64,000 nt of DNA from an uncultured Nitrososphaerales archaeon (GTDB lineage: Archaea; Thermoproteota; Nitrososphaeria; Nitrososphaerales; Nitrososphaeraceae). The stretch covers positions 288,001 to 352,000 of the forward strand of contig CAVQMO010000001.1 of the NCBI GenBank assembly GCA_963713605.1, in the 5' to 3' direction. Each line of letters starts with the position of its first letter. Position 1 is the first letter of the stretch. The position numbers and the translations under genes are program-made. The notes below the pieces were generated by a model. The model did no database searches and was not told the origin of the DNA. It was given only the letters and a program-made list of their open reading frames with translations. This document shows, piece by piece, positions 13,284-43,938 of this stretch.

Positions 13284-15123
13284 TTGAAAACGAGAAAAGA
13301 TGCTAGTCATTCTCATCAAAAACATATACCTAAACCCCGGCCCAATCCTCGCTGGGGGAAGGAGGAGGAAACTAATATTTTTGCTGAGAAAGTAAAGTTA
13401 TTCAGGACTGGCAAACTGTCAGAGGATGAATTCCGCAGATTTCGATTACAACACGGCGCCTATGGCTCACGTCTCCAAATGGATTACAGTATGGTAAGGA
13501 TTAAGGTTCCTGGCGGTGAGATACTTCCAATACAACTAGAAAAACTAGCGTCTCTGTCAGAATCATTTTCGATCGGATCAGCACATGTATCTACCAGGCA
13601 AAATATTCAGCTACATTGGGTTCAGCTTGAAGATGTTAGCGAGGTGATGAGAGGATTGGTTGAAGTTGGCCTCACGACTCGAGAGGCTTGTGGTAACACA
13701 GTTAGGAATGTGATGTGTAGCCACCTTGCGGGAGTCTGTCCAGATGAGGAATTTGATTCTACGCCTTATTCGAAGGCAATAGCGCGCTTCTTCCTACGTA
13801 ATCCAATGTGCCAAAACCTACCTAGGAAGTTTAAAATCAACTTCGCGTGCTGTGAGACGCATGGACTAGTTAGAATTGCAGATATCGGTCTTGTTCCGAT
13901 GACAAAAGATGGCTCACGAGGCTTTAGGATCTATCTCGGAGGAGGTTTAGGTGCTGCTTCCTTTATAGGTCATTTGCTAGAAGAGTTCACGTCGGAGGAA
14001 AAGCTCTTGGCCACGTGTATGGCAGTCATTAGACTCTTTGACAGGAATGGGAACAGAGAAAATATGGCTAGGAATAGAATGCGGTATCTGGTAAATGAAA
14101 TGGGATGGGATAAATTCCAAAAGATGGTGCTCAAAGAAAGGTCTATAGTCATGATGACAACTGCTCACAGCACGGAAATTATGTTCAATTTGACCGCCGA
14201 AGAAGACGATCAATATTTGCCCAAGGAAAATCGTAGCGGGACTAAACTGCGAATGTATATTGAACGAGATTCGTCTAGCACTAGTGCATATGAGAGATGG
14301 GTTCACTCCAATGTGATCGCTCAGAAACAGACTGGATATTACACGGTATTTGTCACACTCGGTGCTGGTGACGTAACCGCTAACCAGTTGCGAGTATTGG
14401 CTGGGACTATCCGCGAACTATCGATGGAAGGTGCAGCTAGAAATACTCCACAACAGAATTTCGCTATCAGATACGTGAATGGCAATGATTTACCTGAATT
14501 CTACAACCGATTGGCATCAGTGGGATTGTCAAATCCGGGAGCTTTGACTATTACGTCTGCAGTCGGCTGTTCTGGGACTACATCTTGTAATTTAGCCATA
14601 ACGAACTCGCATCGTTTGGCCAAAGAGATCCAGTACAAGTTCTTGGAATTAGGTCTAGATACTGATGATATGCTCCTTGATAGCACGATCAAAATTAGTG
14701 GATGTCCAAACTCATGTGGACAACATGAGATAGCGACTATCGGTTTCTTTGGTGGTGCTTCTAGGATAGGCAGTGTAATGGCACCGACTTACACTATGAT
14801 GTTTGGAGGCTCGGCAGGAGAAAGAGGAGAATTAGGGCGCGTCATAATGCGTGTTCCTGCAAAGCGAGTAATTGATACAGTTCTCAAAATAATAGAAATC
14901 TACAGGAGCGAGCACGGTGAAGGTGAAACACTTCGCTACTGGCTAGACAAAGTATTGAAAGGTGAAGCAATCGGCTCTATCCATGACATCGAAGACATCA
15001 AGAGAGCATTAGCTGGCTGTTGTGCAGCTTCCACCAGCAGATCAGCAACCTGAAGCGTACCAGGATTACGGGAGTGATGCAAGATTTACAGCAAGAACGG
15101 CTAGAGGTGAATGTGCCGCTTAG
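13284..15123 (+). CDS. sir: ferredoxin nitrite/sulfite reductase (siroheme); frameshift near 15015, corrected C-terminus ...ARTARGECAA
   Basis: STRQNIQLH, ACGNTVRN, LPRKFK, GCSGTTSCNLA, SGCPNSC; the alternative frame continues to TAG at 15123. Confidence 0.9.
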
Positions 15124-15153
15124 TTTGGTATCAGTTTGGTATTAGTTTGGTAT
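15121..15153 (+). repeat. 3 x 11-bp tandem repeat (Y)AGTTTGGTAT
   Basis: TAGTTTGGTAT CAGTTTGGTAT TAGTTTGGTAT. Confidence 0.9.
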
Positions 15154-16555: not shown

Positions 16556-16721
16556 AATTTAGATGATTTCGGAGAATATATTTGAACTTCTATACTCAGA
16601 GTCAACAGAATATATGATCCAGGGAATCGTCGCAGTCGTTTTGATTTTCTTTCTCTAATTTTTCAACACTCGCTTCATATATTATATATGTGAGCCAATA
16701 CTTTCAGATCCGGTATATTCT

Positions 16722-17796
16722 ATGTCGAGAAAAGTCCGTGTTGCTATTGCTGGGATCGGGAATTGTGCTTCCGCCCTTATTCAAGGAATTCACTACTATG
16801 CTGCGAATTGGTCTGACACTATTGGCCTAACCGCATATTCACTTGGTGGAATTGATCCTGGTGATATCGAATTTGTTGCAGCATTTGACGTCACAGAGGG
16901 TAAGGTGGGCAAGGATCTTTCGGAGGCGATATATGCAGAACCCAATAATACGCCGAATATAATTGATGGGCTAGACAAGCTAGATGTTAGAGTTGAGAAA
17001 GGTTCTGTCCTTGACGGCCTTGGTAAGCATTACCTAGAAAAAATAAAGGTCTCAGATGCCCCAGATACTGATGTAGCAGGCATTCTAAAAGACAGCGGAG
17101 CTGAAATACTCTTGAACTACCTTCCAGTTGGAAGCAGGCTCGCTACTCAATTCTATGCTGAGCAGTGTCTAGAGACTCGAAAAGTGTCGTTCATAAATGC
17201 TATCCCCGTTTTTATCGCCTCGGCTGCTAAATGGCAGCAGTCATTTGAGGGCGAGCGGGCTGGTTTGCGCAGGGGATGATGTTATGAGTCAACTTGGTGC
17301 AACTGTGGTACACAAAAGCCTAGTAAAGTTGTTCGTCGATAGAGGAGTCAAAATTGATGACACTTATCAGCTAAATGTAGGCGGAGACATGGACTTCTAT
17401 AATATGCTTGATGAAGATAGGTTAGAAGATAAGAGAATTAGCAAGACTTCTGCAGTTCAGGCAATGTCGCCGTATCCTATTCCAACACGCATCGGTCCTT
17501 CCGATTATGTTGGATTTCTCAACAATGACAAGATTTGTTATTTATCAATTAGAGGCAAATACTTTGGCAAAATCCCAGTTGAACTCGATTTGAAGCTAAA
17601 AGTTGTGGATGCGTATAACAGTGCAGGGGTAATGGTAGACGCGATTAGAGGTGTAAAGCTAGCAATGGATAGGAATATTAGCGGTCCGTTAGAGAGTGTG
17701 TCTGCATATTGTTTTAAACATCCGCCGGTTCAAATGCATTACCTAGATGCTAAAGAGAAGTTTTTAGAATTCGTCGAAGGGAAAAGAGATCGATAG
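16722..17796 (+). CDS. ino1: myo-inositol-1-phosphate synthase (frameshift near 17250)
   Basis: AIAGIGNCASAL, NYLPVGS, GDD.MSQLGAT, YQLNVGG.MDF, NSAG. Confidence 0.93.
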
Positions 17797-19922: not shown

Positions 19923-20071
19923 GATAAAGTGAGTAGTATCCCTGTGGTTTTAAAAGCATTTGCCCTCGTTGGCTCAAGACGATGATGACTGTCTTTTTAT
20001 TCGAGCTTGCAATCGGTTCATCTCCCAATAAACAATAAGTAAAGGAGTCTCCAGCAAACAAATAGGTAAGG

Positions 20072-20697
20072 ATGGATCCAACAGGACGCTCAGTACATAG
20101 AGATGACGCACCGATCTCACTTAAGCATCTGTGCACATTGTTGATAAAGGAAATTAACACCGATTCGTTACAAAATCTCCCTGTAAATATCTATCATGAG
20201 GTTACTTCACGCATCGAAACGCTAAGAGGGACTTCAAAGGAATTTCGGCAGAAGAACAAATCGCAAAGGCGCAGACAGAACTACTATTTAGTGCAATAAG
20301 GTTGCTCTTTGAAGCCAGATATGCCAAAATCGTAGCAAGCCAAAAGGCAGACTTTCGTGACAGGCAAAAAAATGAGTTAGAAATAATAGATTATTCCAAT
20401 ATGACCAGGGAAGAGAAATTTGTGCTGGATGGGAGCTTGGAAACAGAGAAAAGAATCGAGATGATCTTCTCGGCCATTCTAACAGGAAGACCGGTAGTTT
20501 TGGACAAAATTTCTAATATGCTAAGCCATAAGTGCGTTCCGGTCAGGTTTATCAAGCCGATTGACCGTTTCATGGGGATAGATATGGTGGCATACGGGCC
20601 ATACGTCGAAGAAGACATTGCACTACTCCCGTCAGAGAATGCTAGAGCTCTAACACAGAATGGTTTTGTAGAGGAAATCCAAATGCTGGCTCCGTAA
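20072..20697 (+). CDS. gins: GINS15-type DNA replication factor (frameshifted around 20230-20300)
   Basis: E..TDSLQNLP..Y, NMT.EE, C-terminal B-domain VRFIKP...FMGID...YGPY..EDIA.LP.ENA..L. Confidence 0.8.
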
Positions 20698-24002: not shown

Positions 24003-24671
24003 TTGGGAATTTATAAGTACGATATTTACAAGAGTCCGAATTTAGGGTTGTTCGGTCGGGCGAACAATAGCACTCTGATCCTACCTTTTGGTTTCGCCGA
24101 AACTAAAATGACTAAATTGAGGAGCTACCTAGAGGTCGAAAATGTACTTTTTACTTCGATTGGAGGAACCAGGCTCATTGGGGCGATGGCTGTCATGAAC
24201 AACAAAGGCATCTTGTTGTCGTCTTTTTCGTCGGACGAGGAGATTGAAGCTATGAGGCGATCGACCGGGCTTAACGTCGAGAGGCTATCTAGCAGGTTTA
24301 CTGCAGTAGGGAACTTAGTTATAGCCAATGATATGGGTGCGCTGGTTTCTCCTATATTCAAAGGCGAAGTTGACAAGCAGGTCCAGGATGTTCTTGGAGT
24401 ACCCGTTATCTCCTGTACTGTCGCAGGATATTATCAGATCGGTTCAATGATTGTTGCTACTGATACGGGTGCAGCTGTACACCCCAAGGCATCAGAAGAA
24501 GAGGTGGCAATTATCGCAGAGACTCTAAAGGTTGAGACTGAGCCAGTCACGGTTAACGGCGGTATGCCATTCCTGTCATCGGGATTACTCGCCAACAGTA
24601 AATCCGTAATCGCTGGTAGTATGACGAGTGGACCAGAGCTGATCATGATTAGTAGAGCTTTCAAGGTTTAG
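24003..24671 (+). CDS. eif6: translation initiation factor 6 (aIF6)
   Basis: SPNLGLF, GTRLIG, TAVGN..ANDMGAL, TVNGG. Confidence 0.95.
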   Translation: MGIYKYDIYKSPNLGLFGRANNSTLILPFGFAETKMTKLRSYLEVENVLFTSIGGTRLIGAMAVMNNKGILLSSFSSDEEIEAMRRSTGLNVERLSSRFTAVGNLVIANDMGALVSPIFKGEVDKQVQDVLGVPVISCTVAGYYQIGSMIVATDTGAAVHPKASEEEVAIIAETLKVETEPVTVNGGMPFLSSGLLANSKSVIAGSMTSGPELIMISRAFKV

Positions 24672-24967
24672 AATCTACGGGATCTACTGTGAATCAGGAA
24701 GCATATACCTGAGTATCTACTGGTAAATGGCTATTTCTGAGCCTTGATATAGGATTTGGTTCAGTACAGATTGAAAGTTCAAGTTGATAATAAGACTATA
24801 CAACTCAAAATCATTCTATGAATTTGGAAATTGGGATATCGAGATTCAAAGCACCCTTGTACAAAGTTGAATAAGCAGCATTATTTGGAACAAAATTTTA
24901 ATGATATCTGCAAAGATAAATCGGTTTTGGCAACAATAACGTATATAACAACAAAATAGAAATAATA

Positions 24968-25495
24968 TTGACGATGTCTGACAACGGAGTAGAACCTAAG
25001 GAGGAACGGTCTACATTTACAAGTACTTGGACTGTTGAATGGAAGGACGAAACTAGTCATGTCGTCAACACAGAAAAAGAAAATGCCTATCCTCAGGCCT
25101 TGATTTTGTTTAACGAATTATCTAGTTCGGGAAAGGAGGTGGTTCTTTACGAAATACGGACGCCCATTGCCGATCCAGCTGCTCAACCAAAAAAAATCCC
25201 AATTCTGAATAGTGCAAAGGCAAAGAAGAGAATTACTCATGGGGAACCGAAACCGCGAGCAGCTAGGGTGTCAGATAGGATTACAAATTCAAGCAAATCT
25301 GCAAAAACTTCTAGTCTAAAGGAGCTCAGGACAAGAATACTTATTTTAGTTGCAGTCATTGCTGTTTTTGTCATTATTCTCTTTCTTATTTCTATTCTTT
25401 TTACTGGCAGCGATTTAGCGCACAATTTTTCGATTTTACTTTTTCAACTAAATCCTCTGCGATTGGACTTAAACATACGGCCGGTTCTAGGGTAA
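24968..25495 (+). CDS. hypothetical protein with C-terminal TM helix
   Basis: 175 aa ORF, TATA-like element upstream. Confidence 0.65.
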   Translation: MTMSDNGVEPKEERSTFTSTWTVEWKDETSHVVNTEKENAYPQALILFNELSSSGKEVVLYEIRTPIADPAAQPKKIPILNSAKAKKRITHGEPKPRAARVSDRITNSSKSAKTSSLKELRTRILILVAVIAVFVIILFLISILFTGSDLAHNFSILLFQLNPLRLDLNIRPVLG

Positions 25496-25606
25496 TGTTT
25501 GTAATATTTAGGGCTCAAGCACCCTAAAAGCTTAATCAATTCCTGAGTGATTGGCACATTTGCTTCAAATACACAAGTTTAATACTCCTAGTTAGTTATA
25601 GGGGCT

Positions 25607-25852
25607 ATGCCAATAGCATATGTGTTACTCAATTGTGAACTCGGTCATGAAGCAGATATTATTAACGAACTGAAAAAACTACCGGGAGTCAATGATGTCG
25701 AAGGATGTTATGGTGTTTACGACATGATTCTGAAAATAAGCTCGGATTCGATGGACAAGCTAAAGGAGACTATCACGTGGCACATCCGAAAGATAGACAA
25801 AATAAAGTCGACTTTAACATTGATAGTTATAGAAGGCCAGGGGAATCATTAG
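25607..25852 (+). CDS. Lrp/AsnC ligand-binding domain protein (paralogue of 21280)
   Basis: AYVLLNCE.G, YGVYD, DSMDKLKETITWHIR. Confidence 0.93.
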   Translation: MPIAYVLLNCELGHEADIINELKKLPGVNDVEGCYGVYDMILKISSDSMDKLKETITWHIRKIDKIKSTLTLIVIEGQGNH

Positions 25853-26107
25853 GATTAAAGGCGAATTGAAGGGTTATTAGCTTACGACTCGCCTGCCAAT
25901 CCAGTGTCTTACCATACATTCAATCAAACCGCATGAAATTTAATAGGTCTTGACACAGATAGAGTTGGCACACTAATTTTCATTGGAATCTGATATGACG
26001 TTGCCTACATTGACATCATATTTCTCGACCTGATTGGTCAAGCATTCGTGTTAATTTATTCTCCTTAAAATAGTCTAATTTTAAGATAAGCTCGTTCGAT
26101 TTGCTCT

Positions 26108-26446
26108 TTACCTAATGTCTTGAAAAGCCTGGGAAATCTGCGATTTTGCCGCTTCCAGATCCTTATCGCTGGAGATAAGAAAAGCATTTTCTGGTTTACC
26201 CCTACCATGTTTTACGATTATAGCGAGTCCGTCGTCTTTTGGTTGAACATCAAGGAACGTCCTAAAGTTCAGCGTCTTCGCGTAGACAATTCGATGCGGG
26301 CGCACCTCTTCTATGACCATATCGCCTAGCGATTTTGCGAATCGTCTAAGCTCTAAGAGTATCTCTTTGATATCGTCTCTTAAACTCGTTAGATGATCTT
26401 CAAATTGCAAACCAGATTTATTATTGACGAACCCGAATTCACTCAT
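26108..26446 (-). CDS. conserved hypothetical protein (DUF5655-like)
   Basis: SLGD.VIEEVRPHRIVY.K...FR.F. Confidence 0.7.
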   Translation of the reverse strand: MSEFGFVNNKSGLQFEDHLTSLRDDIKEILLELRRFAKSLGDMVIEEVRPHRIVYAKTLNFRTFLDVQPKDDGLAIIVKHGRGKPENAFLISSDKDLEAAKSQISQAFQDIR

Positions 26447-26793
26447 GAGATCCTATATGCAAAAACCCTTTATTAATCAAAGAGGCACACGCAGTCTAGA
26501 TTTTTAGAGTTTTCCAGTTATTGAGGGCTTTCAATATTGGATATTGTACTATAAGGCAAATCTTTGATATGCATCTAATATGCGAATACTACTCTGCACT
26601 TGACGAGCTTCTGGTGAGCAACCCAAACATATTTTCAGCATATTGAAGGGAAAGGACAAATTACTTCAATCAATATAACATCCCCTGCCCTGGATGTTAC
26701 TATGCAGCAGACCGGAATCGCCAATCGAATAAATTTGTATCTACATTTTTACTTTTAAGGAATCGGGATAAAAATAGGTTGGTTTATCGAGGT

Positions 26794-27132
26794 TTAATTC
26801 CAGAGGGCGAGACGTTCCTTAAGAGGAGCAAAGTGTCTTTCAATCTCATCGAAGCGTTCATAAAAATTATCGATATGACGAAGTTTTTCAAAGGAAGAAT
26901 CTGTCTTTATCTTCTTCAAGACCCCGCTCACTTCATCAATCGTAACCCCGTGCTTAATATCATATTCTATCTGCTTTATGCAATTTGCTATCGTTCCGTA
27001 CTTCCGATGTTGTCGTTTTTCCCAAGTTGAAGCCGTTTCCGATATTCCTGTTAAATACTTTACAATTGTCTTTTCCATATGCTCAATATGCCAATCCTTC
27101 ATAGGAAAGCTATTCTGAGTCAAAAGATCCAT
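26794..27132 (-). CDS. conserved hypothetical protein
   Basis: 112 aa ORF (WHIEH.EK.I, YDIKHGV), TATA-like element upstream. Confidence 0.75.
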   Translation of the reverse strand: MDLLTQNSFPMKDWHIEHMEKTIVKYLTGISETASTWEKRQHRKYGTIANCIKQIEYDIKHGVTIDEVSGVLKKIKTDSSFEKLRHIDNFYERFDEIERHFAPLKERLALWN

Positions 27133-27432
27133 AATATATCCCTCTGCCGGACATATAAGCTAAGCCCCCATTCCAATAGCAAGGTTATTCTGCTAGTTAT
27201 CCACTACTCCATCAGCTTATGACATCTATGCCCCTCGACATCTTAATCGCCCCTCTCCGAGATTTCCAAATAGCCAGCCAGTCACCTATGCGCCTTATAT
27301 TGATTTCTAGGATTTGGTTGAAATGCATACAATACGAGAGTTTCATCCAAACCGTTCCAGATACTTTTCGTATATCAAGAGAATCCTAAATTCTCCTAAA
27401 ATCTCTTGTGACCTACAATGAGGGCAAGCCGT

Positions 27433-27984
27433 TTAGGCTATTCCAGTCGTCTTCTTTAGATGCTTCTCGAAGCTTTGTAAGGCTGATATCTGTTCTTCAG
27501 ATTGGATCGAACCTGGTCTCAAAACTCTGATCTTTGTGATGGCTTCTAGAGAGGACAGATTGGGGTCCTGTTTCATAATATATGCTGCAAGAATGGTTCC
27601 GGTTCTTCCTTTTCCGGCTGCGCAATGAACCAATACTGGTTTCTCTTCGTTAATGCGTTGGTCTATGTACCGGACCGTTGATTCTAAGCTTTCAAGTGGC
27701 GGTGCACCAAAGTCATCAACCTTCAGGTGCATATACTCCAGTTTCTGACTGGTATTAGTTAACCACGAAGTTGGAAGTGGGCTTTCCCTAACTGTGATGA
27801 TACTCCTAATGCCGTTCTTTGCAACCCACAAAAGTTGTGGCAAATTGACTGGCATGCCGCTGCCCGCTAATTTTTTCTCTATCACCCAGCTAAAATTCGT
27901 TGGTCGATTTGCAAAGCGTCCATGAAACCAACGATATGTATTGCCAATTCTGGTCATGTAGTTGTTTTGAATAATTACTTGCAA
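27433..27984 (-). CDS. dual-specificity protein phosphatase
   Basis: NFSWV, VHCAAGKGRTGT (CX5R), RPGSIQ. Confidence 0.93.
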   Translation of the reverse strand: MQVIIQNNYMTRIGNTYRWFHGRFANRPTNFSWVIEKKLAGSGMPVNLPQLLWVAKNGIRSIITVRESPLPTSWLTNTSQKLEYMHLKVDDFGAPPLESLESTVRYIDQRINEEKPVLVHCAAGKGRTGTILAAYIMKQDPNLSSLEAITKIRVLRPGSIQSEEQISALQSFEKHLKKTTGIA

Positions 27985-28141
27985 GAAGAGAATATATGTC
28001 TTTTAAATCGCCGTGTACGATCTTACTTTGAATATGCAAATAATCTTCGTGGCGCTGTATCCTCATCTGCATAGGTTCTAAATGTGCAAGGGTTAAATTG
28101 CATTGTGTGCTGGATGAGCCAGGGTCAAATGGTGGCGCAAT

Positions 28142-28852
28142 TTGATTAAACATGATTTCTCTAGTAAGATAGTTCTGATTACGGGAAGCTCGGGCGCGGT
28201 AGGAAGTCGGTTATTGGAATTTTTCACATCACACGGTGCTACTACCATTGGAACTTACCTAGACGAAACGAAAATCGATATTACTCGTTCAAAATCTGGA
28301 GGAGTCGACCTTATTCGATGTAATACTATGGAGAATGCCGATGTGACTTCTCTCGTTGATTCAATTACCCATAAACACGGTCGAATAGACGTTCTATTGA
28401 ATACTGTAGGGGGATACATTGGTGGGAAGAGTGTAGTGGATCTTGAAGAGGAAGAATGGAACAAGATGTTGGGTTTAAACCTGCTTTCGGCGTTCCTAAT
28501 TACCAAGCAAGTTCTCCGTCTAATGCTTCAATCTGATTATGGTAAGATAGTTCATATTTCTTCTTATACGGGGATATCTGCTCAGGGGTTGGATTCGGCA
28601 TATGCCTCATCGAAAGCCGGCCTGATAAGATTTGTTGAATCCGTTTCAAAAGAAGTGAAGGAATATAATATTACGGTCAACTGTTTATTACCTTCGATTA
28701 TCGATACAAAATCAAACAGAAAAATGATGCCAGATGCTAATTTCAAGCAGTGGGTCAAGATAGACGAGCTAGTGGATATTATTGCGTTCCTAAGTTCTGA
28801 CGACTCTCGTGCACTAACTGGCTCAGCAATACCAGTGCTCAAACCAAGTTAA
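28142..28852 (+). CDS. short-chain dehydrogenase/reductase
   Basis: TGSSGAVG, YASSK, PSIIDT. Confidence 0.93.
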   Translation: MIKHDFSSKIVLITGSSGAVGSRLLEFFTSHGATTIGTYLDETKIDITRSKSGGVDLIRCNTMENADVTSLVDSITHKHGRIDVLLNTVGGYIGGKSVVDLEEEEWNKMLGLNLLSAFLITKQVLRLMLQSDYGKIVHISSYTGISAQGLDSAYASSKAGLIRFVESVSKEVKEYNITVNCLLPSIIDTKSNRKMMPDANFKQWVKIDELVDIIAFLSSDDSRALTGSAIPVLKPS

Positions 28853-28900
28853 CTTAACTGCTACTCAACTACATAATTTGAAATTAAGAAAGTGATCAGA

Positions 28901-29215
28901 TTAGCTCAAAAAGGAAATGATTTTTCCCACCAAATCATTTTCGCGGGGCCTAGTTGTTGTTTCCAATAGTGCAACTCCATCTAAAGTAGCAGAAAAATAT
29001 TCTCTGTAATAAATGCGCATTTTTCGCCTTAATGTCCTTTCTACCAGGCCATATTCCATAAGGTCGGTTATCAATTGAGAAACAATCAATTGATTAAGAT
29101 CAGTTTGGCTTGAAATCTTGCTCTCTGTTTTGGAGCTACCCTTAACGCAACTAAGTATTTGAACATGCCACTTTGTCAGGCGTGAATCGTTACGATCAAA
29201 GGTCCTCGCATTCAA
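28901..29215 (-). CDS. winged-helix domain protein
   Basis: helix-turn-helix plus L.EYGLVER...T..G wing pattern. Confidence 0.6.
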   Translation of the reverse strand: MNARTFDRNDSRLTKWHVQILSCVKGSSKTESKISSQTDLNQLIVSQLITDLMEYGLVERTLRRKMRIYYREYFSATLDGVALLETTTRPRENDLVGKIISFLS

Positions 29216-29437
29216 ATGTATGTTATTTAGATCAACTAGAGTCGATTATTAATGTAACTGTCTAGCTGTGCAACAGATATACAGTACATTGACTTCTGTC
29301 ATACCTAAGAGTAGGATAGTCTCAAATCTTAAAATCAAGCCATTACTTGTCTTACGAATAGATTTCCTCAGGTGGAATAATTGCATGGCATCCCCAAATA
29401 AAATAACATTAATGGGGAATTGTTTGGATAAAAAGAG

Positions 29438-30256
29438 GTGAATAGTTCTTCGGACCCTGGAGAATATTGGCAGAATAGACTCACAGCAAATTATAGTTTG
29501 GACGGAACAGGATTCCAGGCCCTTGGCCAGCATTACAACAAATGGATGTATAGAATTAGGAAAGTTATCGTAAAAAGGGTGGTTAATAGGACGATCTCTG
29601 AGCTTAATGTTAAGGATGCGTTTGATATTGGTTCAGGTACTGGGTTTTACATTGACATGTGGATAGAACTTGGCGCTACAGGAGTCATAGGAAGTGACAT
29701 TACAGACGTGGCAGTGTCGAAGTTGGGGGAGAAATATCCTTCCAATGAATTCTTTAAGCTTGATATTGGGCAAAATGTATTGCCAGATCAGCTCTCTGGC
29801 CGAAAGTTTGACATCATATCTGCATTTGATGTATTATTCCATATAACCGATGATGTTCGATATCGGAATGCAATACTGAATATTAGTCGCCTTTTAAGAG
29901 AAGATGGAACGTTTTTGTTTTCAGAGAATTTTCTTCATCGTGATGCGCTAAGATCCCAGCATCAGGTGAGCCGTCCGCTTCTTTCAATCGAAAGGATACT
30001 TCAGGAAAGCGGATTTAAAATATTAGACAGGATTCCCATGTTTGTAATTATGAACGCACCAGTGGATACTAACAGTAGGTTACTTCAAACAACCTGGAAG
30101 TTGATTAGAACCACTGCAAAGAAAGGGAGATTCGCATCGAATTTCACCGGCTGTTTGCTTTATCCTCTAGAATTAATTCTTACTGGTATAGTCAAGGAGG
30201 GGCCATCAACGGAATTGATGATCTGCAAAAAACTACAAGGGGGTTCACAGTCCTAG
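29438..30256 (+). CDS. class I SAM-dependent methyltransferase
   Basis: FDIGSGTG, GSDIT, FDVLFHI, L.EDG. Confidence 0.9.
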   Translation: MNSSSDPGEYWQNRLTANYSLDGTGFQALGQHYNKWMYRIRKVIVKRVVNRTISELNVKDAFDIGSGTGFYIDMWIELGATGVIGSDITDVAVSKLGEKYPSNEFFKLDIGQNVLPDQLSGRKFDIISAFDVLFHITDDVRYRNAILNISRLLREDGTFLFSENFLHRDALRSQHQVSRPLLSIERILQESGFKILDRIPMFVIMNAPVDTNSRLLQTTWKLIRTTAKKGRFASNFTGCLLYPLELILTGIVKEGPSTELMICKKLQGGSQS

Positions 30257-30626: not shown

Positions 30627-30843
30627 TGGAAACAATAAACCAGAGCTGAATCTTTCAAGAGGTGAAAGCTTGAGGCGTTCAGTGTTTGAAAGAAATGCTT
30701 GTAACAACAGCTCCTTAACAAATAAGAAGCACTTAACGAAATTGTATTCAATCAGTCCTACCTTCCCACATCTCTTTTCGCGTAGTCCCAATCGGTCATA
30801 CAATATCTCACTATAGAATCTTACAGTACATTAGACGTAAAAA

Positions 30844-30853
30844 TATTTATAAT
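30844..30853 (+). promoter_or_regulatory. TATA box (preceded by an A-rich BRE-like stretch) for the Ala/Gly-rich gene
   Basis: AAAAATATTTATAAT ~25 nt upstream of GTG 30875, consistent with a leaderless archaeal transcript. Confidence 0.55.
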
Positions 30854-30874
30854 GTATTGCTCCGCGAAAGTACC

Positions 30875-33769
30875 GTGCTTAGTAAAACAAATTCATTTCA
30901 AACGTACGTACTAATAGCACTAACACTGGGAGCATTAGGGCTCCAAGTAGTGCCTTTAAACCAAATACATGCAACAGTGGCTGGATTGGCAGCCGCAGCC
31001 GCAGCTGCGAGCAGCTGGTGACGCAGCAGCTGCCGCAGCAGCAGCCGCTGGAGGCTCAGCTGCAGCTGCAGCCGCTGCAGGCAGTGGCAGCTGCAGCAGC
31101 AGCATCATCTGCAGGAGGAGGTGCAGCAGCAGCCGCAGCAGCAGGCAGTGGCAGCAGCAGCAGCAGCCGCCACCTCTGGTGGTTCAGCAGCAGCAGCAGC
31201 CGCAGCAGGCAGTGCAGCCGCAGCAGCAGCCGCTGGAGGTTCAGCAGCAGCAGCAGCCGCAGCAGGCGGTGCAGCCGCAGCAGCAGCCGCTTCTGGAGGA
31301 GAAGCCGCCTCGGCAGCAGCCGCGAGCAGCAGCGGCTGATAACGGCGCAGCAGCAGCCGCAGCGCAGCTGCGGGTGCAGGCGCTGCATCGGGCGCAGCAG
31401 CAGGCGCAGCCGGCAGCAGCAGCCGCTGCAGCGGCAGCAGCTTCAGGTGTCTCAGGAGCAGCAGCAGCAGCCGCAGGCAGTGCAGCAGCAGCAGCCGCAG
31501 CAACTGGAGGTGGTGCAGCAGCAGCTGCGGCAGCAGGAAACGCAGCGCGCAGCAGCAGCAGCAGCCGCAGGTGGCGGTGGTGCAGCAGCAGGTGCAGCAG
31601 CCGGTGGTGGTGGCAGCAGCAGCAGCCGCAGCAGCCAGTCAGGCAGCAGCCGCAGCCGCAGCCGCAGCTGGCGGTTCAGCCGCAGCAGCAGCCGCAGCAG
31701 GAGCAGCAGCAGCCGCAGCCGCAGCCGGTGGTGGTGCAGCAGCCGCAGCCGCAGCTGGTGGTGGTGCAGCAGCAGCAGCAGCCGCAGCTGGTGGTGGTGG
31801 CAGCAGCCGGCAGCAGCCGGTGGCGGTGGTGCAGCAGCCGCAGCAGCCAGTCAGGGCAGCAGCAGCAGCCGCAGCTGCAGCTGGCGGTTCAGCAGCCGCA
31901 GCAGCCGCAGCAGCCGGTGGTGGTGCAGCGGGCGCGGCAGCCGCGGCAGCAGGTGCAGCAGCAGCAGCTGCAGCAGCAAGCTCAGGGCTTAGTGGGGCAG
32001 CCGCAGCAGCAGCAGCAGGTGGTGCAGCCGCAGCAGCAGCAGCATCAGCCGGTGGTGCAGCCGCAGCAGCAGCAGCATCAGCTGGTGGTGGTGCAGCCGC
32101 AGCAGCAGCAGGAGCGGGCAGTGCAGCAGCAGCAGCCGCAAGTGGCGGTGGTGCAGCCGCCGCAGCAGCAGCAGGTAGCGCGGCAGGTGCAGCAGCAGCA
32201 GCCGCTGCCTCAGGTGGCGGTGGCGCAGCCGCAGCCGCAGCCGCAGCTGGGCAGGGAGCAGCCGCAGCCGCAGCATCAGCCGGTGGCTCAGCAGCAGCAG
32301 CAGCAGCAGCAGGTGCAGCAGCATCAGCTGCAGCAGCAGGTAGTTCAGCCGCAGCTGCAGCCGCAGGTAGTGGCGCAGCCGCAGCCGGCAGCAGCAGCGG
32401 GTGGTGGTGCAGCAGCGGCAGCTGCAGCAGCTGGTAATGCAGCGGCAGCAGCAGCCGCCGCCGGTGGTGGTGGTGGTGGTGGCAGCAGCAGCAGCAGCTG
32501 CGAGCATCCGGAGGTGGCGCAGAGCAGGTGCAGCAGCAGGTAATGCAGCAGCAGCAGCCGCAGCAGCCGGAGGTGGCGCAGCAGCATCAGCCGCAGCTGC
32601 ATCAGCAGCCGCAGCAGCAGCCTCTTCTGCAGCAAGTGATGCGAGCAGCAGCCGCCGCAGCAGCAGCAGCAGCCGGTGAAGATCAGCAGCAGCAGCAGCA
32701 GCAGCAGCAGGTACGGCAGCGCAGCAGCAGCAGCAGCCGGTGAAGCAGCTGCAGCAGCAGCAGCAGCCGGTGAAGATCCAGCAGCAGCAGCAGCCGCAGC
32801 AGCTGCAGAAAATGGAGGCTCAGCCGCAGCCGCAGCAGCAGCAGGTAGGGCAGCAGGAGCAGCAGCAGCCGCCGGTGAAGCAGCTGGTGCGGATCCAGCA
32901 GCAGCTGCAGCAGCTGCAGCAGCAGCAGGAGCAGCAGCAGCCGGTGGTGCAGAACCTCAGCAAGCAATAGAAGCCGGTGCTGCTGGGGCCGCTGGAGTTG
33001 AGAATCAGAATCTTGCAGCTCCAGAAGGTGAAGCTCCTCCAGAAGATGGTGCAGCTCAATTAGCCGCCCCTGAAGGTGCAGTTCCTCCTGGTGGCGCAGC
33101 TCCTCCTGGTGGCGAAGCTCCTCCTGGTGGCGAAGCTCCTCCTGGTGGCGAAGCTCCTCCTGGTGGTGAAGCTCCTCCAGAAGATGGTGCAAGCTCCTCC
33201 AGGTGGTGCAGCTCGCTCCAGAAGGTGATGAAGCTCCTCCAGGTGGTGAAGCTCCTCCAGAAGATGGTGCAGCTCCAGAAGGTGCAGCTCCAGAAGGTGC
33301 AGCTCCAGAAGGTGCAGCTCCAGAAGGTGCAGCTCCAGAAGGTGCAGCTCCAGAAGGTGCAGCTCCAGAAGGTGGTGATGCACCTCCAGAAGATGGTGGC
33401 GCAGCTCAATTAGCCGCTCCACGAGGTGCAGCACCTCCTGAAGGTGTAATTTGTAACCCTGACATACCAATATTCAATCCGGAAACAGGTCAATGCGAAG
33501 CCGCCCCCCAACCCGAAGCAGCCCCAGAGTGTAACCCTCCTGAAGTACTAAATCCAAATACAAATCAATGCGAAGCTCCACCAGCTGACGTAGCTCCACC
33601 AGCTGACGTAGCTCCACCAGCTGACGAAGCTCCACCAGCTGACGAAGCTCCACCAGCTGACGAAGCTCCACCAGCTGACGAAGCTCCACCAGCTGACGAA
33701 GCTCCACCAGCTGACGAAGGTCAGGACGGAGGCAACGGCGACGACGGTAACGGAGACGAAAACAACTAG
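30875..33769 (+). CDS. secreted poly-Ala/Gly silk-like repetitive protein (~960 aa after correcting several frameshifts)
   Basis: GTG start gives MLSKTNSFQTYVLIALTLGALGLQVVPLNQIHA-TVAGLAAAAAAA (signal peptide); GCN codons vary at the third position; acidic Pro-rich C-terminus ends at TAG 33769. Confidence 0.8.
30988..32950 (+). repeat. imperfect (GCA/GCC)n-GGT low-complexity array encoding poly-Ala blocks with Gly linkers
   Basis: directly visible; strongly GC-rich relative to the flanks. Confidence 0.95.
33269..33373 (+). repeat. 7 x 15-bp tandem repeat GCAGCTCCAGAAGGT (AAPEG)
   Basis: counted in sequence. Confidence 0.9.
33575..33718 (+). repeat. 8 x 18-bp tandem repeat GCTCCACCAGCTGACG(T/A)A (APPADV x2, APPADE x6)
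   Basis: counted in sequence. Confidence 0.92.
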
Positions 33770-33775
33770 GGTAAC

Positions 33776-33801
33776 TAGAGAAAATTTTTCTCTTTTTTTT
33801 A
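33776..33801 (+). terminator. putative terminator (short hairpin plus oligo-T)
   Basis: AGAGAAAA/TTTTCTCT followed by a T run immediately after the stop. Confidence 0.6.
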
Positions 33802-34014
33802 TCCTCTAAGTAAGGGTCATTATTCTAACCGCTTTTTTTTGCATTAGACTTGACGTTTATTACCCAGAAATTTAGCCTGATGCAGCTAATATTGTATTGA
33901 TTGATTGATAATATTACACGATTAGCACTGAATGGCTGTTGCACCTAGCGAACCAACAACTTTTTCGATTATGTGATCAAAGTCTGACCTAAATTCCAAT
34001 CTTTATAACACGTC

Positions 34015-37603: not shown

Positions 37604-38327
37604 CTATTTGGCACGAGTTCCGGACCAGACGAGCGAATGAAACCTAATTGATAATCTGTAACCATTCTTCAGACAGATTTCTGCCAACCATTTGGATTTT
37701 TCCACAATCTCTGCAGCAGAATTTCCCTCAGGCATCAGAATTATTCTTTGCCTCTTCAGCATTATATTTTCCGATCAGAGTCTCTACTTCTGATATGTCT
37801 GAACGATTGCATATAACAAATTTCATGTACGCCTTAGAATTCTTGGCAAAATATTCTAAACAGGTTTGACTTCTCTGTGTTTTTCGAAATCGAAGAATTC
37901 TGAAGTTTTGGTGAAACGTTCCACCGGTCGACAAATCTTTCTACCATGTCTGAGGGAAGAATAGTACCATTCGTTTCAACCTCGATGAAATAGTCATTGC
38001 TCTTCAAATTGGAAAGTAATGGAACGAGTTTCATTTGTTGTATGAGAGGTTCGCCGCCGGTGATTACACAATGCTTCGTGTCGAACCCTGATATTTGTTC
38101 CTGAATCTCAGGTTATAGTCATTTCTGAAACTTCTCTATCATAATCGTAATGATTCCAGTCCCATGTGTATTTCGTGTCACACCATACGCATGATAGATT
38201 ACATAACGCAGTTCGTATGAAAACTGCTGGCTTTCCCACATCAATCCCCTCTCCCTGTAATGAATAGAATATTTCACTAAGCTTGAGAGTCTCTATCTCG
38301 GATGATAGCAGGTCGGGATATTCTCAT
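37604..38327 (-). CDS. queE: 7-carboxy-7-deazaguanine synthase QueE (radical SAM), multiple frameshifts; N-terminus missing from the ORF track
   Basis: manual translation: SEIFYSLQGEG..GKPAVFIRTALCNLSCVWCDTKYTW, ITGGEPL, VETNGT, VSPKL, MPEG, R.H...W. Confidence 0.9.
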
Positions 38328-38878
38328 AACTTTATCCAATCACTCCTCCAACCAGATGTTAAAATTATCTTCTTAATATCTGTTGGAGAATTTGTTGCGT
38401 TATTTAATTACCCTACTAGCAAATCCCATACAGTTTAAGAAATCGTTGGGGAAATATATAATTTCGGCATGATGATCACAAGGATCGGATCCTTGCCCAG
38501 GCCCGGGGAGATATTTCACGTGCTAAGGGCCAATTAGCAACAAGCTTTACAAAATCACCTTGTGAATATTAATATGTGACTGGAATGGCCATATTTTAGT
38601 GTAGAGACACCTATCCACAAATCTTATTGTTTAGTTATAAAAAAAACGAGCAAATGGAGATTAGGTCTGCTATTCATCAGTATGGGCAGTTTTGCACTGT
38701 AAAATAGAATGATGTCAAATTAGCTTACTGTAAGCATTCTTATAAGCGGTAAAGAATACAATTGCTACCATCGGATGAACACATTCAATTGTTGAACCTA
38801 CAGACAAACAACTGTGCATCTTTTACCGCAAACAAGGGGTTTTTAGTATGATTGAGTTGATAGTAGTCCCATTTCTCA

Positions 38879-39493: not shown

Positions 39494-39974
39494 TTATTGT
39501 TTTGAAAAGAATTGCTTTTGCTGTTGTTGGGACACATTATAATATGTATTCCAGGCCTTTGCGATATTCGTATTATATTCAGTTATCGTATCTACAGTCC
39601 TATTGTATACCTTAAGATTCTCTCTGCGGCATCAATAGCATTTATGGTCAATTGATTGTTGATATCTATTGCTTTTATTGTGTTGTTTGTGAAGTCAGAT
39701 GTCTGTCTTGCCATTTGATCCGATACGACTCAGAGCTTGGAAAAGTGTTCCAGGTTTCACCTACATACTGCTTTTGAACAGCAAATGTAGTGTGTATTAA
39801 ATTCTTCACCGTCTGGATATAATCAAGCTGCAGGTTTGATATTGACTGTGAATATTGGGGTTGAGCCTTAGCAACTTCGTCAATAGCCCTCATAAAACTG
39901 TCTCGAACAGTTTCGTATGGTGTGTTCACTTCTGTCGTCTTTACGTTACCACTTGCTGATTCTTTATCTACCAT
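39494..39974 (-). CDS. Gln/Asn-rich helical protein, possibly phasin-like (frameshifted)
   Basis: MVDKESASG...QPQYSQSISNLQ..YIQ; continues in other frames to ...AKAWNTYYNVSQQQQKQFFSKQ*. Confidence 0.6.
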
Positions 39975-40169
39975 TTTGCAACTAAATATCATTATGCTAT
40001 CTCTTATATATAGCTTGGCAATAGATGGTATTAATTGGCAAATAGATCCATCGTCTAGCGTTAGGAAGTAAGCACAAGACCGAACAATTCTGAATTCTAC
40101 CGTCGTACAGCCTATTACTAATAAATCATAGGTCATCAAATAATCTTAGGCAATTTAATGACTACACGA

Positions 40170-40725
40170 CTAATTGCTTTTTTCTTCTGATTTGGAAATT
40201 ACATAGAATCCGTGTGCTGAGATAAGAAAGGCAGCAAAAGACATCTTTGTCGCAAAAACCAGATTCCAAGGAGTCTCCGGATTGGGGTACGGTACATTGA
40301 TGTCATCTAGTCTTAGCAATCCATTGGTCATATCAACTGTAATAAATGAATTCCAAACGACAAAGTTGTAGATGAATTCGTATAATGCTGTAATCGCAAT
40401 GGCAAGTATAATGAGCTGAAAAAGAGCCTTCCATGATTTTGGTAATTTTTTTGCCTGATGCTCCACCTATCTTAGTGACACAATACCAACCTACAACAGT
40501 AACTATCATAAGATAGGTAACCAATTTCGCCAAACCAGTCATCGGAAATTCAGTATCCACTAATACCTCTCCGATAACAATTTTCCCCGTGCTCAAATAT
40601 TCAGCTATGCTCAGAACCAGTGCATAAGTAAAGATGATTAACATGGTCGCAGCGCAGAAGTAAAAGGTATAAAGATAAATCTTCCTTGCTCTCAATTCAT
40701 CCTTTCTGAGACTTGGGTTCTGCAT
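40170..40725 (-). CDS. four-TM membrane protein (frameshift near 40455)
   Basis: two overlapping hydrophobic ORFs; YEFIYNF, PWNLVFATK. Confidence 0.7.
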
Positions 40726-41011
40726 CTTATGACAGTCTTTGATAATAATTAACGCTTTATATAATCTATATTTTGGTCGCGATTCTCTTCAATTAGAAAT
40801 TCCATTGAAGCGAAATCGAATCATTACTCTACTAATACTCCAATACCCTATAGAAGTGGACTTCCAGTATTGAGATTCAAATGAGTTGCTACCTAACCGT
40901 TTGACTTGATTTTGCAATTAGCAGGCTAATCAGATAGATATAAAATATGAACACATATAACCTGAAAAACTCTTATAGTCATTCGCGGATCGATTCCATA
41001 GACAAGGGCAG

Positions 41012-41651: not shown

Positions 41652-42519
41652 CTATTTGCACTGAGAGCGAATTTGTCGAATCAATTCCAATATCGTGTCG
41701 GCGTCGTTTGTCTCAGGATGCATCTCCAAATACTTACTAAGTGTAGCAAGAGCCTCCAATTTTTGCCCCCTTTTTAAAAAAATCATCCCCTTATCTCTTA
41801 TTGCAAATGGGTTAGTTTCATCAATGCTGATTATCATTTCGTTTGCGAGTTCGGCTCTTTCTAGGTCGTTTGACTCATAAAAGCTATTCTTGAGATTATT
41901 TAGGAGTCTTACGACTACCTGTGAAGCAGTTGCATTACTAAGTAGCGCCCTCGTCAGTACCATATTTTGGCGAGGGTACGATCGTTCCAATAACTCTTTA
42001 AGGGAATAATCATCCATTATTCGACCCATATTAAATGGATCGATAACGATCTCCGCAGATTGATCGTCAAGAATATATTTGACCAAAAAGTGAGCTGGAA
42101 AGTTAACAGGAAATAGATGTGAAGTCTAACATCGATGCTATCCTCATATAAATGATAGACAGAGTTATCGGTATCCCGTTTTTCTTTCAGAGTACTATGT
42201 TGAGATAATTGTTGGCTGGATTGTAATAGTCATGTGCATTTGGCTTGAACTTTACCTCATTGAAGAAAAAATCATTTATCCCTTCGATGAGTTGAGTCGG
42301 TCGTAGACGCTTAGGGTCTTTTACTTTTTGAGACAATTTATTACCCAGGCCGTCAATTTGCCGTGAAATGGATTCGATATTCAAGTCCGGATAGGCCAAA
42401 ATCCTTGAAACATGTAACGAAAATTCAGCTAATCTACTACTGTCCTCTTTCATTCGTATAGGAATTGCCACAACGTTCTTCCAATCCTCTATACATCCTT
42501 GCAAATCTATTGCAACCAA
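41652..42519 (-). CDS. SirB1/transglutaminase-like plus TPR protein (frameshifted)
   Basis: AYPDL, DYYNP.N.YLN.VL, GIPITLS, VNFP.HFLV, IDPFN.G, RLLNNLK, RD.G. Confidence 0.88.
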
Positions 42520-42725: not shown

Positions 42726-43938
42726 CTAATCGAATTCGATAGAACTAGTTCTTCCCGTTCTACGACTAGTTTGTATGTTTGCAGTTTGTGACGCTCGTGA
42801 TAATCTATATCTCTTGTATTCTTCATCCACTTCCATTGATGCTTTTAATATCCTGCTCCTCGTAGACACAGATTTTGAAGATTGTAGAAACATTTTGGTG
42901 TCTTTTGGCAGACAATGTCCTCCTATGCCGTCTCTGGGCTCAAGTATCTCTACATTCCATTTGGTATTTAGGGCTTCACGCAATTCTGGGAAGTTTATAC
43001 TATTTGCTTGACAGTAAAGGTAGATATCCTCTGCAAATGCTATTTGAAGATATCTATGAGCATTTTCAGCGTATCTTTGTTATTTCAGCAATTTCTACAT
43101 CAGAAACAGGATGTAAAGGTATTCCTAGATTAGGAGTGTAATTGATGTTATTATTTTTGCCAGTAGTAGGAAAGGAAGAAGAAGTATGAGAAGTAGCGTT
43201 AGAAGGAGTAAATGAAGTATTAGTAATAGCATCATCCATAGCGAGGGAGTGATTTATGCTGTATAGCCATGAGGAGTGCTGTTATTGCCTATTATCGCCA
43301 TCGCTCATTAAGGATGCATTGCCATTACCATTGCCATTACCATTACCAATATTGATATTGATTGTTGTTGCTGTTGTTGTTGCTGTTGCTGTTGTTTATG
43401 TCGTTGTTAACATTAAATTGGCCATAGAACTGCACAGCTGCTTTAAGACAACAATCACACACTCCTCCAACTACACGCAACTGGTTAACTCCATGCTCTT
43501 TTTCTTCTAAAGCATACCATCTATGAGGTATATGTGCAACATGTAATCTGTGGTTTAGCATCTCAAATACCTTCTTAGACGTTCCTCTTGGAATAGTGCT
43601 TTCTATTGAGACAAGTGCACCATTTTTGGCTTCCTTTGCAATTTTCTCTTGTACAATGGAAAACAAACCATCTATCTGAGGCGTAAACATATCGTCTGGC
43701 ATGTGTGTAGAGATGCAAATAATGTATACATCAAATTCACTGAAATTATCAGCTTTCTTTATTGAGCTATCTTTTCTGCACGCTGTATTGCTTTCTGACT
43801 AATATCATATCCGTACACATCAAATCCTCTGTCCTTCACATATTTTGCTACAGGAAGACCAAGCTGGCCTAAACCTATTATAAGAACTTTGTCGAAGCGA
43901 GAATAATTTTCAGTTCTCAAGGAGCTTGACTGTGACAC
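42726..43938 (-). CDS. UDP-glucose/GDP-mannose dehydrogenase family protein with Asn-rich insertion (multiple frameshifts)
   Basis: KVLIIGLGQLGLP, SIESTIPRGT, ENAHRYLQIAFAE, GIGGHCLPKD. Confidence 0.8.

Follow-up and report, generated by a model that had tools for sequence, protein, structure and literature searches.

A modular family of predicted exported poly-alanine proteins in an uncultured Nitrososphaerales archaeon

The poly-alanine gene and its reading frame

The DNA analyzed here (the window) is a stretch of 64,000 nucleotides from an uncultured Nitrososphaerales archaeon (GenBank assembly GCA_963713605.1, contig CAVQMO010000001.1, positions 288,001 to 352,000), and at window positions 30875-33769 on the plus strand it carries a single gene for a poly-alanine repeat protein, whose frame is split by approximately 17 assembly indels. 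An earlier note, made from the sequence alone, had read an exported protein from a GTG at 30875 behind a TATA box, with a leader ending in Ile-His-Ala, and the sequence bears out this start. The parts of the gene are as follows, the signal peptide being called from hydropathy only and all indel positions being approximate.

30840..30854, plus strand: A-rich stretch resembling a transcription factor B recognition element, with a TATA box (TTTATAA at 30846-30852); similar spacing to the start in most of 10 relative loci compared
30875..30973, plus strand: GTG start and predicted 33-residue Sec-type signal peptide with an I-H-A end (peak Kyte-Doolittle hydropathy 2.31 over 15 residues)
30974..32941, plus strand: poly-Ala core of about 60 Ala7-9 blocks with alternating short and long linkers, collinear with open orthologues
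31009, 31086, 31150, 31324, 31363, 31410, 31547, 31612, 31802, 31855: frame-breaking assembly indels, first half of the core
32385, 32475, 32502, 32523, 32643, 32684, 32720: frame-breaking assembly indels, second half of the core
32942..33451, plus strand: low-complexity Pro/Glu/Gly/Ala spacer with APPGGE and APEGA repeats, variable among orthologues
33452..33574, plus strand: two short Cys-pair motifs of the type C-x-PP-x-VLNP-x-TNQC, also present in two copies in orthologue L003
33575..33769, plus strand: (PADEAP)n repeat and acidic Asp/Gly/Asn-rich end without a transmembrane anchor, TAG at 33767-33769

The alanine array itself occupies 30989-32941 (about 651 codons, dominated by GCN), which agrees with the roughly 650 codons first proposed. 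Its linkers are either short (GS, GD, GN, GQ, GK or GG) or long (SGGG, GGS, GEDP or ENGGS). Runs of at least five GCN codons number 51 in the gene and at most two in 500 base shuffles, so a chance origin of the Ala runs is excluded. The final 270 or so codons are not poly-Ala/Gly and consist of Pro/Glu/Ala repeats, two Cys pairs, which are probable disulfide loops, and the acidic tail; two further frame breaks lie in the spacer (at about 33192 and 33214). The absence of a C-terminal membrane anchor, also claimed previously, holds: the acidic end has a net charge of -42 and no hydrophobic segment, and neither an anchor nor such a segment occurs in any of the tails of eight relatives.

Third-position variation had been taken to identify alanine as the coding frame. 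It does fix that frame but leaves the strand undecided, as the antisense strand (window 31000-32950) has long open Ala/Pro frames that mirror the gene and that gene finders might pick instead. The strand is nevertheless settled because the TATA box, start codon and signal peptide are conserved. A sigma-70 promoter scan, a type ill-suited to archaea, gave nothing useful.

The frame breaks are assembly errors. The host genome (G000; 4.09 Mb in 15 contigs, archaeal amoA present) yields 19 shifts in a best-path reading of the gene, two of them end effects, and DNA alignments to three orthologues contain 18-23 non-triplet gaps, mostly at common places. A fragment of the core, used as a query, was found in 10 of 13 genomes of the same genus and in none of 27 others; seven relatives hold the gene in the same neighborhood, and Ala runs occur in 8 of the 25 loci compared. 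Among long arrays, five show no frame switch, two on large contigs show 6 and 20, one is cut short, and that of the window shows 13. Open frames of 604-923 codons exist in L002, L003, L005, L006, L012, L021 and L074, the last being a complete open orthologue (816-codon frame), and the source genomes of the syntenic orthologues are fragmented; two loci of an unpublished genome (L004 and L027 of G013) can be set aside with all claims standing. The ratio of nonsynonymous to synonymous substitution (dN/dS) is 0.11-0.17 in all five pairs of intact orthologues, with differences concentrated at third codon positions (39-46% versus 5-10%). Frameshifts, judged against relatives, affect ordinary window genes as well (15 of 32 redundant rows, about eight genes). 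The assembly is therefore rich in indels, and split genes of this genome should not be taken as pseudogenes.

The RNA check covered 4 of 24 listed runs, three of them RNA; these were picked up with the stretch itself, give neither strand nor level, and may include DNA. Each of the three RNA runs, which come from separate studies, has contigs that are 95-99+% alike and cover the 5' end of the gene from 30891-30892 on, and both contigs that cross 31009 lack the extra frameshifting base there. The gene is thus apparently transcribed, probably as a leaderless transcript, of which the contig starts give a weak hint. No RNA contigs were found for the upstream methyltransferase, an observation given no weight as evidence. 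A lack of homologues or expression had been named as grounds for refutation; orthologues were found in related genomes, and these RNA contigs point to transcription. Together with the open frames and purifying selection, they uphold the view that one gene lies behind the fragmented open reading frames: it is real, predicted to be exported, and under purifying selection.

Across the mature cores, alanine makes up 65-70%, glycine 14-18% and serine 7-12% (92-95% together). Blocks, described at first as of 6-10 Ala, are mostly of 7-9 (380 of 443 among blocks of 6-10 residues). The intact orthologue L021 has 82% of its Ala in runs of 6-9 (27% on average and at most 45% in shuffles), with no run longer than 11; runs of 16 and 12 each occur once in other orthologues. 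The linkers, mostly GGS, GS, GG, GGG, GD, GN, GQ and GK with lengths of 1-5 residues, contain the glycines and polar residues reported before, and a higher order can now be added. Short G-X and longer (S)GG(G/S) linkers alternate (0.635 versus 0.486 expected), and Gly autocorrelation peaks at 10-11 and 21-22 residues; the value at lag 21/22 in L021 (0.228) was matched by none of 1000 linker-order shuffles. Between species at about 86% DNA identity, linker order is collinear position by position, while repeat number and tails vary among orthologues. When any non-Ala stretch of at least two residues is counted as a linker, the 121 single substitutions within blocks comprise 65 S, 32 G, 12 V, 10 T, one D and one I; L, M, E, Q, K and R never occur. 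The longest non-Ala stretch in the core is 6-9 residues, GPG is absent, and Tyr occurs 0-2 times in each of four proteins. Thr is rare (3-9 per 540-670 residues, about 1%) and non-periodic, and Q and N account for about 1% each. The maximum Gly fraction per 80-residue window in four orthologues is 0.275, 0.25, 0.275 and 0.20.

Other features of the window are listed below. The upstream neighborhood serves as an orthology marker only, its methyltransferase frame being unmatched in three of seven syntenic loci.

33784..33802, plus strand: T-rich stretch 3' of the TAG, a likely archaeal terminator judging by its sequence
24003..30256, no strand assigned: conserved neighborhood with genes for a methyltransferase, a winged helix-turn-helix protein, a short-chain dehydrogenase/reductase, a phosphatase and others
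13464-15120, 16626-17793, 20066-20694, 37607-38347, 39533-40051, 40173-40917, 41655-42519: ordinary genes split by frameshifts here and open in relatives
43317-43408 and 15122-15153: short tandem repeats (6/12-mer, TTG run, 11-mer)

A modular family and its envelope context

Going beyond the earlier note, the window gene proves to belong to a modular family of several genes, found where no S-layer gene was detected. A hand-compiled list gives about 18 poly-Ala loci in the host genome (three long, two medium, two fused to an immunoglobulin-like [Ig] domain, about ten minis and one fragment), and every long paralogue is frame-broken. The Ala module is used alone in minis, repeated about 60-fold in long forms, or fused to Ig. 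Minis have 75-115 residues, with a signal peptide, a His/Lys or Asp leader and three to four Ala blocks, the last of which closes the protein in some; in the Ig-fused form, the module lies behind an MG2/Ig-like domain (MG2 E value of 5.5e-8 in L086). Relatives contain intact medium forms with Lys/Tyr/His-rich linkers. The linkers of medium paralogues (L032:2372-4048, L075:2495-3781 and G000:C10:686749-688306) are rich in Gly, Tyr, Lys and His and resemble cross-linkable or adhesive motifs. One long paralogue (L028, G000:C10:668250-669200) has about a dozen tandem 22-residue Cys-pair repeats, whose motif occurs twice in the window gene. The host genome also has collagen-like and Pro-Gly-Ala repeat reading frames (C12:5162-7044, C1:170107-170409 and C5:25328-25471) and further Pro/Cys-rich secreted repeat proteins, e.g., at C5:159439-162846.

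The family has a narrow distribution. The DNA pattern Ala6-Gly-X-Ala5 matched 16 of 201 genomes of the taxonomic family Nitrososphaeraceae, namely G000, 12 of its 13 congeners and 3 of 7 genomes of a second genus (g3), where the matches are minis; it matched none of 180 genomes of 16 other genera, and reversed controls gave none. A longer Ala pattern recovered 31 metagenome stretches, 25 of which belong to the poly-Ala family by leader or linker (one only at a contig end). Of the other six, three are unrelated and three carry a single different repeat in DNA of 58% guanine plus cytosine. The latter (L090:1300-1700, L109 and L113; protein P0128) is a near-identical Ala7-GS-Ala8-GGS repeat without the archaeal leader, found twice on one contig in opposite orientations. 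Our guess is that it is a eukaryote exon, and it is a possible case of convergence.

A search with one SlaA sequence lacked sensitivity, matching 1 of 24 Nitrososphaeraceae genomes, so S-layer genes were sought in 91 genomes with a profile of eight S-layer C-terminal regions, the first row of which matches Protein Data Bank (PDB) entry 8C8K. It matched nine genomes: 7 of 8 in genus g30 (four nearly over the full profile), the single genome of g4, and one marginally in g11. It matched neither G000 nor any of eight congeners or seven g3 genomes, meaning that the gene is undetected with this profile, not that its absence is proven. An Ig-fusion profile showed the opposite pattern, with matches in 51 of the 91 genomes yet in none of the eight of g30 or the one of g4. 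Thus, an S-layer gene was clearly detected in just 2 of 18 sampled Nitrososphaeraceae genera and the MG2/Ig-like secreted domain in 15 of 18, neither of those two among them. On these profiles, loss of the S-layer may extend well past Nitrosocosmicus, which is described in the available text of PMC11559005 as lacking S-layer genes and as having a thick wall and hair-like filaments, imaged with components not identified.

In g3, and once in G000, the MG2/Ig-like domain is fused to Gln/Asn-rich Cys-pair modules rather than to Ala. These modules belong to a second family of 30-38 small secreted genes on at least seven contigs of G000 (e.g., C3:255351-257184 and C10:493510-495021; also L078:1722-1985 and L236-L240), with a conserved C-G-N...C-Q-N pair. 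It occurs in 17 of 91 genomes (G000, eight of eight congeners, seven of seven in g3 and one other), and its proteins match no Pfam or NCBIfam family at cut-off. They are possible amyloid-like hairpin subunits. Their linkage to Ala genes is weak, with 5 of 18 Ala loci within 7.5 kb versus a genome fraction of 9.4%.

Database searches returned little for the long form. Neither protein P0001 nor the complete orthologue L074 matched a Pfam or NCBIfam family at E<=1; protein searches yielded none among 8000 and 1876 candidates (lengths 385-1225 only), and the ESM Atlas gave no usable match. A profile search of 1.84 billion proteins found Ig fusions, an N-terminal piece of 64 residues (P0057) and unrelated Ala-rich proteins, most of eukaryotic appearance, with no protein of more than three family-type units among the 150 matches listed. 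It is important to consider that these blanks are partly caused by composition filters and are no proof of absence. With a mini as the query, the ESM Atlas returned three mostly archaeal clusters (scores of 0.91, 0.79 and 0.77), the first possibly the mini's own. The PDB sequence search gave compositional matches only, and the poly-Ala family profile retrieved no 8C8K chain. Foldseek with the helical AlphaFold model described below found nothing, and another fold search found generic helices (best Z 9.8 over 91 residues); therefore, no fold family is excluded. No description of an archaeal poly-Ala protein emerged among the papers listed by literature searches and judged by title and abstract start, with most subscription journals and supplements outside their scope, and the word "alanine" does not occur in the main text of a study of biofilms of ammonia-oxidizing archaea (PMC12448741).

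Predicted structure and its alternatives

We favor, at about even chances, the reading that the window protein is a Sec-exported, anchor-less structural protein whose stacked poly-Ala beta-meanders would self-assemble into an insoluble extracellular coat or matrix. Once the signal peptide is removed, every Ala7-9 block would become a beta-strand, with two-residue G-X linkers as tight hairpin turns and longer Gly/Ser linkers as the opposite loops. The resulting two-strand repeat of 21-22 residues would build a cross-beta ribbon, folded back on itself and lined with methyl groups on either face, and the ribbons would stack face to face like the poly-Ala crystallites of silk. The acidic Pro-rich tail would keep the monomer soluble and point outward, and minis of three to four blocks and Ig-domain fusions could co-assemble through the common module as fillers and display tags. 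Favoring this arrangement are block lengths kept within narrow bounds, turns that alternate, substitutions that are small or beta-branched, the absence of an anchor and the use of the module as a terminal tag. Further points for it are that 6 of the 18 poly-Ala loci of G000 adjoin an Ig gene (fused or within 300 nt), with only 1.5% of the genome within 3 kb of such a gene, a pairing present in g3 too, and that the SlaA profile matched 7 of 8 g30 genomes and none of the window genus or of g3.

Several observations weigh against the beta-meander coat. AlphaFold2, given an 18-row low-complexity alignment, modeled the core as 16-18-residue helices with breaks at the GGG loops and gave a mean predicted local distance difference test (pLDDT) score of 64 (51-64 over five models, locally 80-90) and a predicted template modeling (pTM) score of 0.35. 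The module is also a helix in the model of an Ig fusion, mostly at pLDDT <50, with the Ig domain itself at >90. Alanine has the highest helix propensity of all residues, and D-P and G-S/D/N before Ala runs fit helix capping motifs. The substitution spectrum is somewhat biased because the block definition favors it. The count of Ala loci next to Ig genes is inflated by duplicated loci and by the non-independence of kin. Finally, the SlaA profile has no clear match in 14 other genera that lack the poly-Ala family, so S-layer loss is possible without the family.

An assembly of packed alpha-helices is a serious rival on the strength of the models, though we rate it clearly less probable than the beta-meander coat. 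It keeps the exported structural role, with 16-18-residue Ala helices, kinked centrally at G-X and joined by GGG loops, arranged in hairpin stacks or bundles. The top AlphaFold2 model has this form, and its helix-plus-loop unit comes near the 21-22 period; however, the pTM is just 0.35, the alignment is shallow and of low complexity, and the fold searches matched only generic helices. In addition, glycine would sit mid-helix nearly everywhere, and the blocks lack solubilizing E, K, R, Q or L. Less probable again, and in our view unlikely, is an exported gel, condensate or hydrophobic surface coating of no fixed fold, serving adhesion to particles or air-water interfaces or protection from desiccation. 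The Ala+Gly+Ser content of 92-95%, the variable repeat number and tails, and the His/Lys/Tyr-rich linkers of medium and mini forms would suit it. On the other hand, linker order is conserved between species, and the tightly bounded block length together with the alternating linkers suggests a geometric register.

Type I antifreeze proteins are Ala-rich helices with Thr at every 11th residue, and an ice-binding protein of that fish type, or a flat small-residue solenoid, would account for the very high Ala content, secretion, a period near 11 and a soil and rhizosphere habitat. We consider this very unlikely, as Thr is at about 1% and non-periodic, no ice-binding or ice-nucleation Pfam family is matched, and Ig fusions and His-rich minis are left unexplained. 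The least credible alternative is a trinucleotide-repeat expansion, pseudogene or assembly artefact without a protein product. It could draw on the roughly 17 breaks in the window, the broken state of all long paralogues in G000 and the lack of a long member in protein collections, but it is already largely refuted at the family level by five of seven long arrays of related loci with no frame switch, dN/dS of 0.11-0.17, the frameshifts also seen in ordinary window genes and the two RNA contigs without the extra base at 31009.

Beyond the beta-meander coat itself, a bolder and rather doubtful proposal is that two soil genera without a detectable S-layer gene have replaced it with a modular, amyloid-like cell wall or sheath of silk chemistry. 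Long cross-beta scaffolds, His/Lys-rich minis and Ig-tagged subunits would co-polymerize, possibly with the co-distributed Gln/Asn-Cys proteins. If true, such a co-polymer would be a prokaryotic poly-alanine silk.

Significance and comparison with known systems

The window genus is probably GTDB TH5896, which outnumbered all other Nitrososphaeraceae genera in a floodplain survey, according to the available text of PMC12625717. The family supplies concrete candidates for the surroundings of S-layer-free soil ammonia-oxidizing archaea, in an uncultured lineage related to Nitrosocosmicus. Annotation all but misses its long members: they come out broken in long-read-style assemblies, and protein collections gave only a 64-residue fragment. 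If the blocks form beta-crystallites, the family would represent a prokaryotic convergence on silk chemistry, and its poly-Ala design, natively secreted and almost free of spacers, would be of interest for biomaterials.

Curli CsgA and other two-strand beta-solenoid amyloids have a signal peptide, a two-strand repeat of about 22 residues, Gly turns, a Gln/Asn ladder, and short and long versions. The poly-Ala family resembles them in its signal peptide, its repeat of about 22 residues with Gly turns, and its short and long versions, but lacks the Gln/Asn ladder and a Pfam curlin match; no export operon was seen.

The hallmark of spider silk that the earlier note had recognized is only partly present. 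Crystallite blocks of MaSp2 consist of 6-9 Ala, interrupted here and there by Gly, Ser or Val (PMC5568437), and its beta-sheet formation requires poly-Ala (PMC10789810), both as described in the available text of these papers. Like MaSp1 and MaSp2, the archaeal proteins are predicted to be secreted and have Ala blocks of similar length with S/G/V substitutions (PMC5568437), and this part of the likeness stands. The terminal domains, long Gly spacers, GPG motif and repeat length do not. No N- or C-terminal spidroin domain is present, the repeats begin directly after the signal peptide, and the tail is Pro-rich and acidic. The spacers have 1-9 residues, with no long amorphous Gly-rich phase (GGX, GPGXX), and the repeat is 10-11 residues versus MaSp medians of 25-52. 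Ala is at 65-70% and Gly at 14-18%, GPG is absent, Tyr is nearly absent in the long form, and the chain is far shorter. By its sequence features, therefore, the family is not a spidroin. Mollusc silk-like proteins (byssal preCol, shell matrix), a convergent case, are also secreted, rich in poly-Ala/Gly, and have His-rich cross-linking ends, as the minis have His/Lys-rich leaders (PMC4944945); that survey, as far as its available text goes, covers animals only, and its threshold of >=25% Gly over 80 residues is just reached by three of four proteins here.

Two systems come closer. Lacewing egg-stalk cross-beta silk (MalXB1/2, ChryC1-3) shares a Ser/Gly/Ala core with a fixed period read as strand-turn-strand, but its period is 16 residues in the text available (PMC5485732); the archaeal one is 21-22 and Ala-dominated, no sequence homology was shown, and its cross-beta arrangement is a prediction. 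The sheath proteins SH/MspA of Methanospirillum and Methanothrix are likewise archaeal, with a signal peptide, a proposed amyloid-like envelope role and variants with Ig-like domains (PMC11576556). Their folded core of 2x6 strands in 150-350 residues, as given in the available text, differs from the low-complexity poly-Ala proteins, for which no such fold is predicted, and no SH chain was among the fold-search matches listed for the low-confidence helical model. The main text of the sheath paper contains no word beginning with Nitrososphaer- or Thaumarchae-. The sheath proteins are nonetheless a precedent for a signal peptide, an amyloid core and optional Ig domains in one system and so support an envelope role. 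The poly-Ala family is provisionally placed among silk-like or amyloid-like structural proteins, where its lineage is new and its modular design, almost devoid of spacers, sets it apart. By the features tested, it belongs neither to the lacewing silks nor to the SH proteins, and by analogy it appears nearer to lacewing cross-beta silk in layout and nearer to the archaeal sheath amyloids in role.

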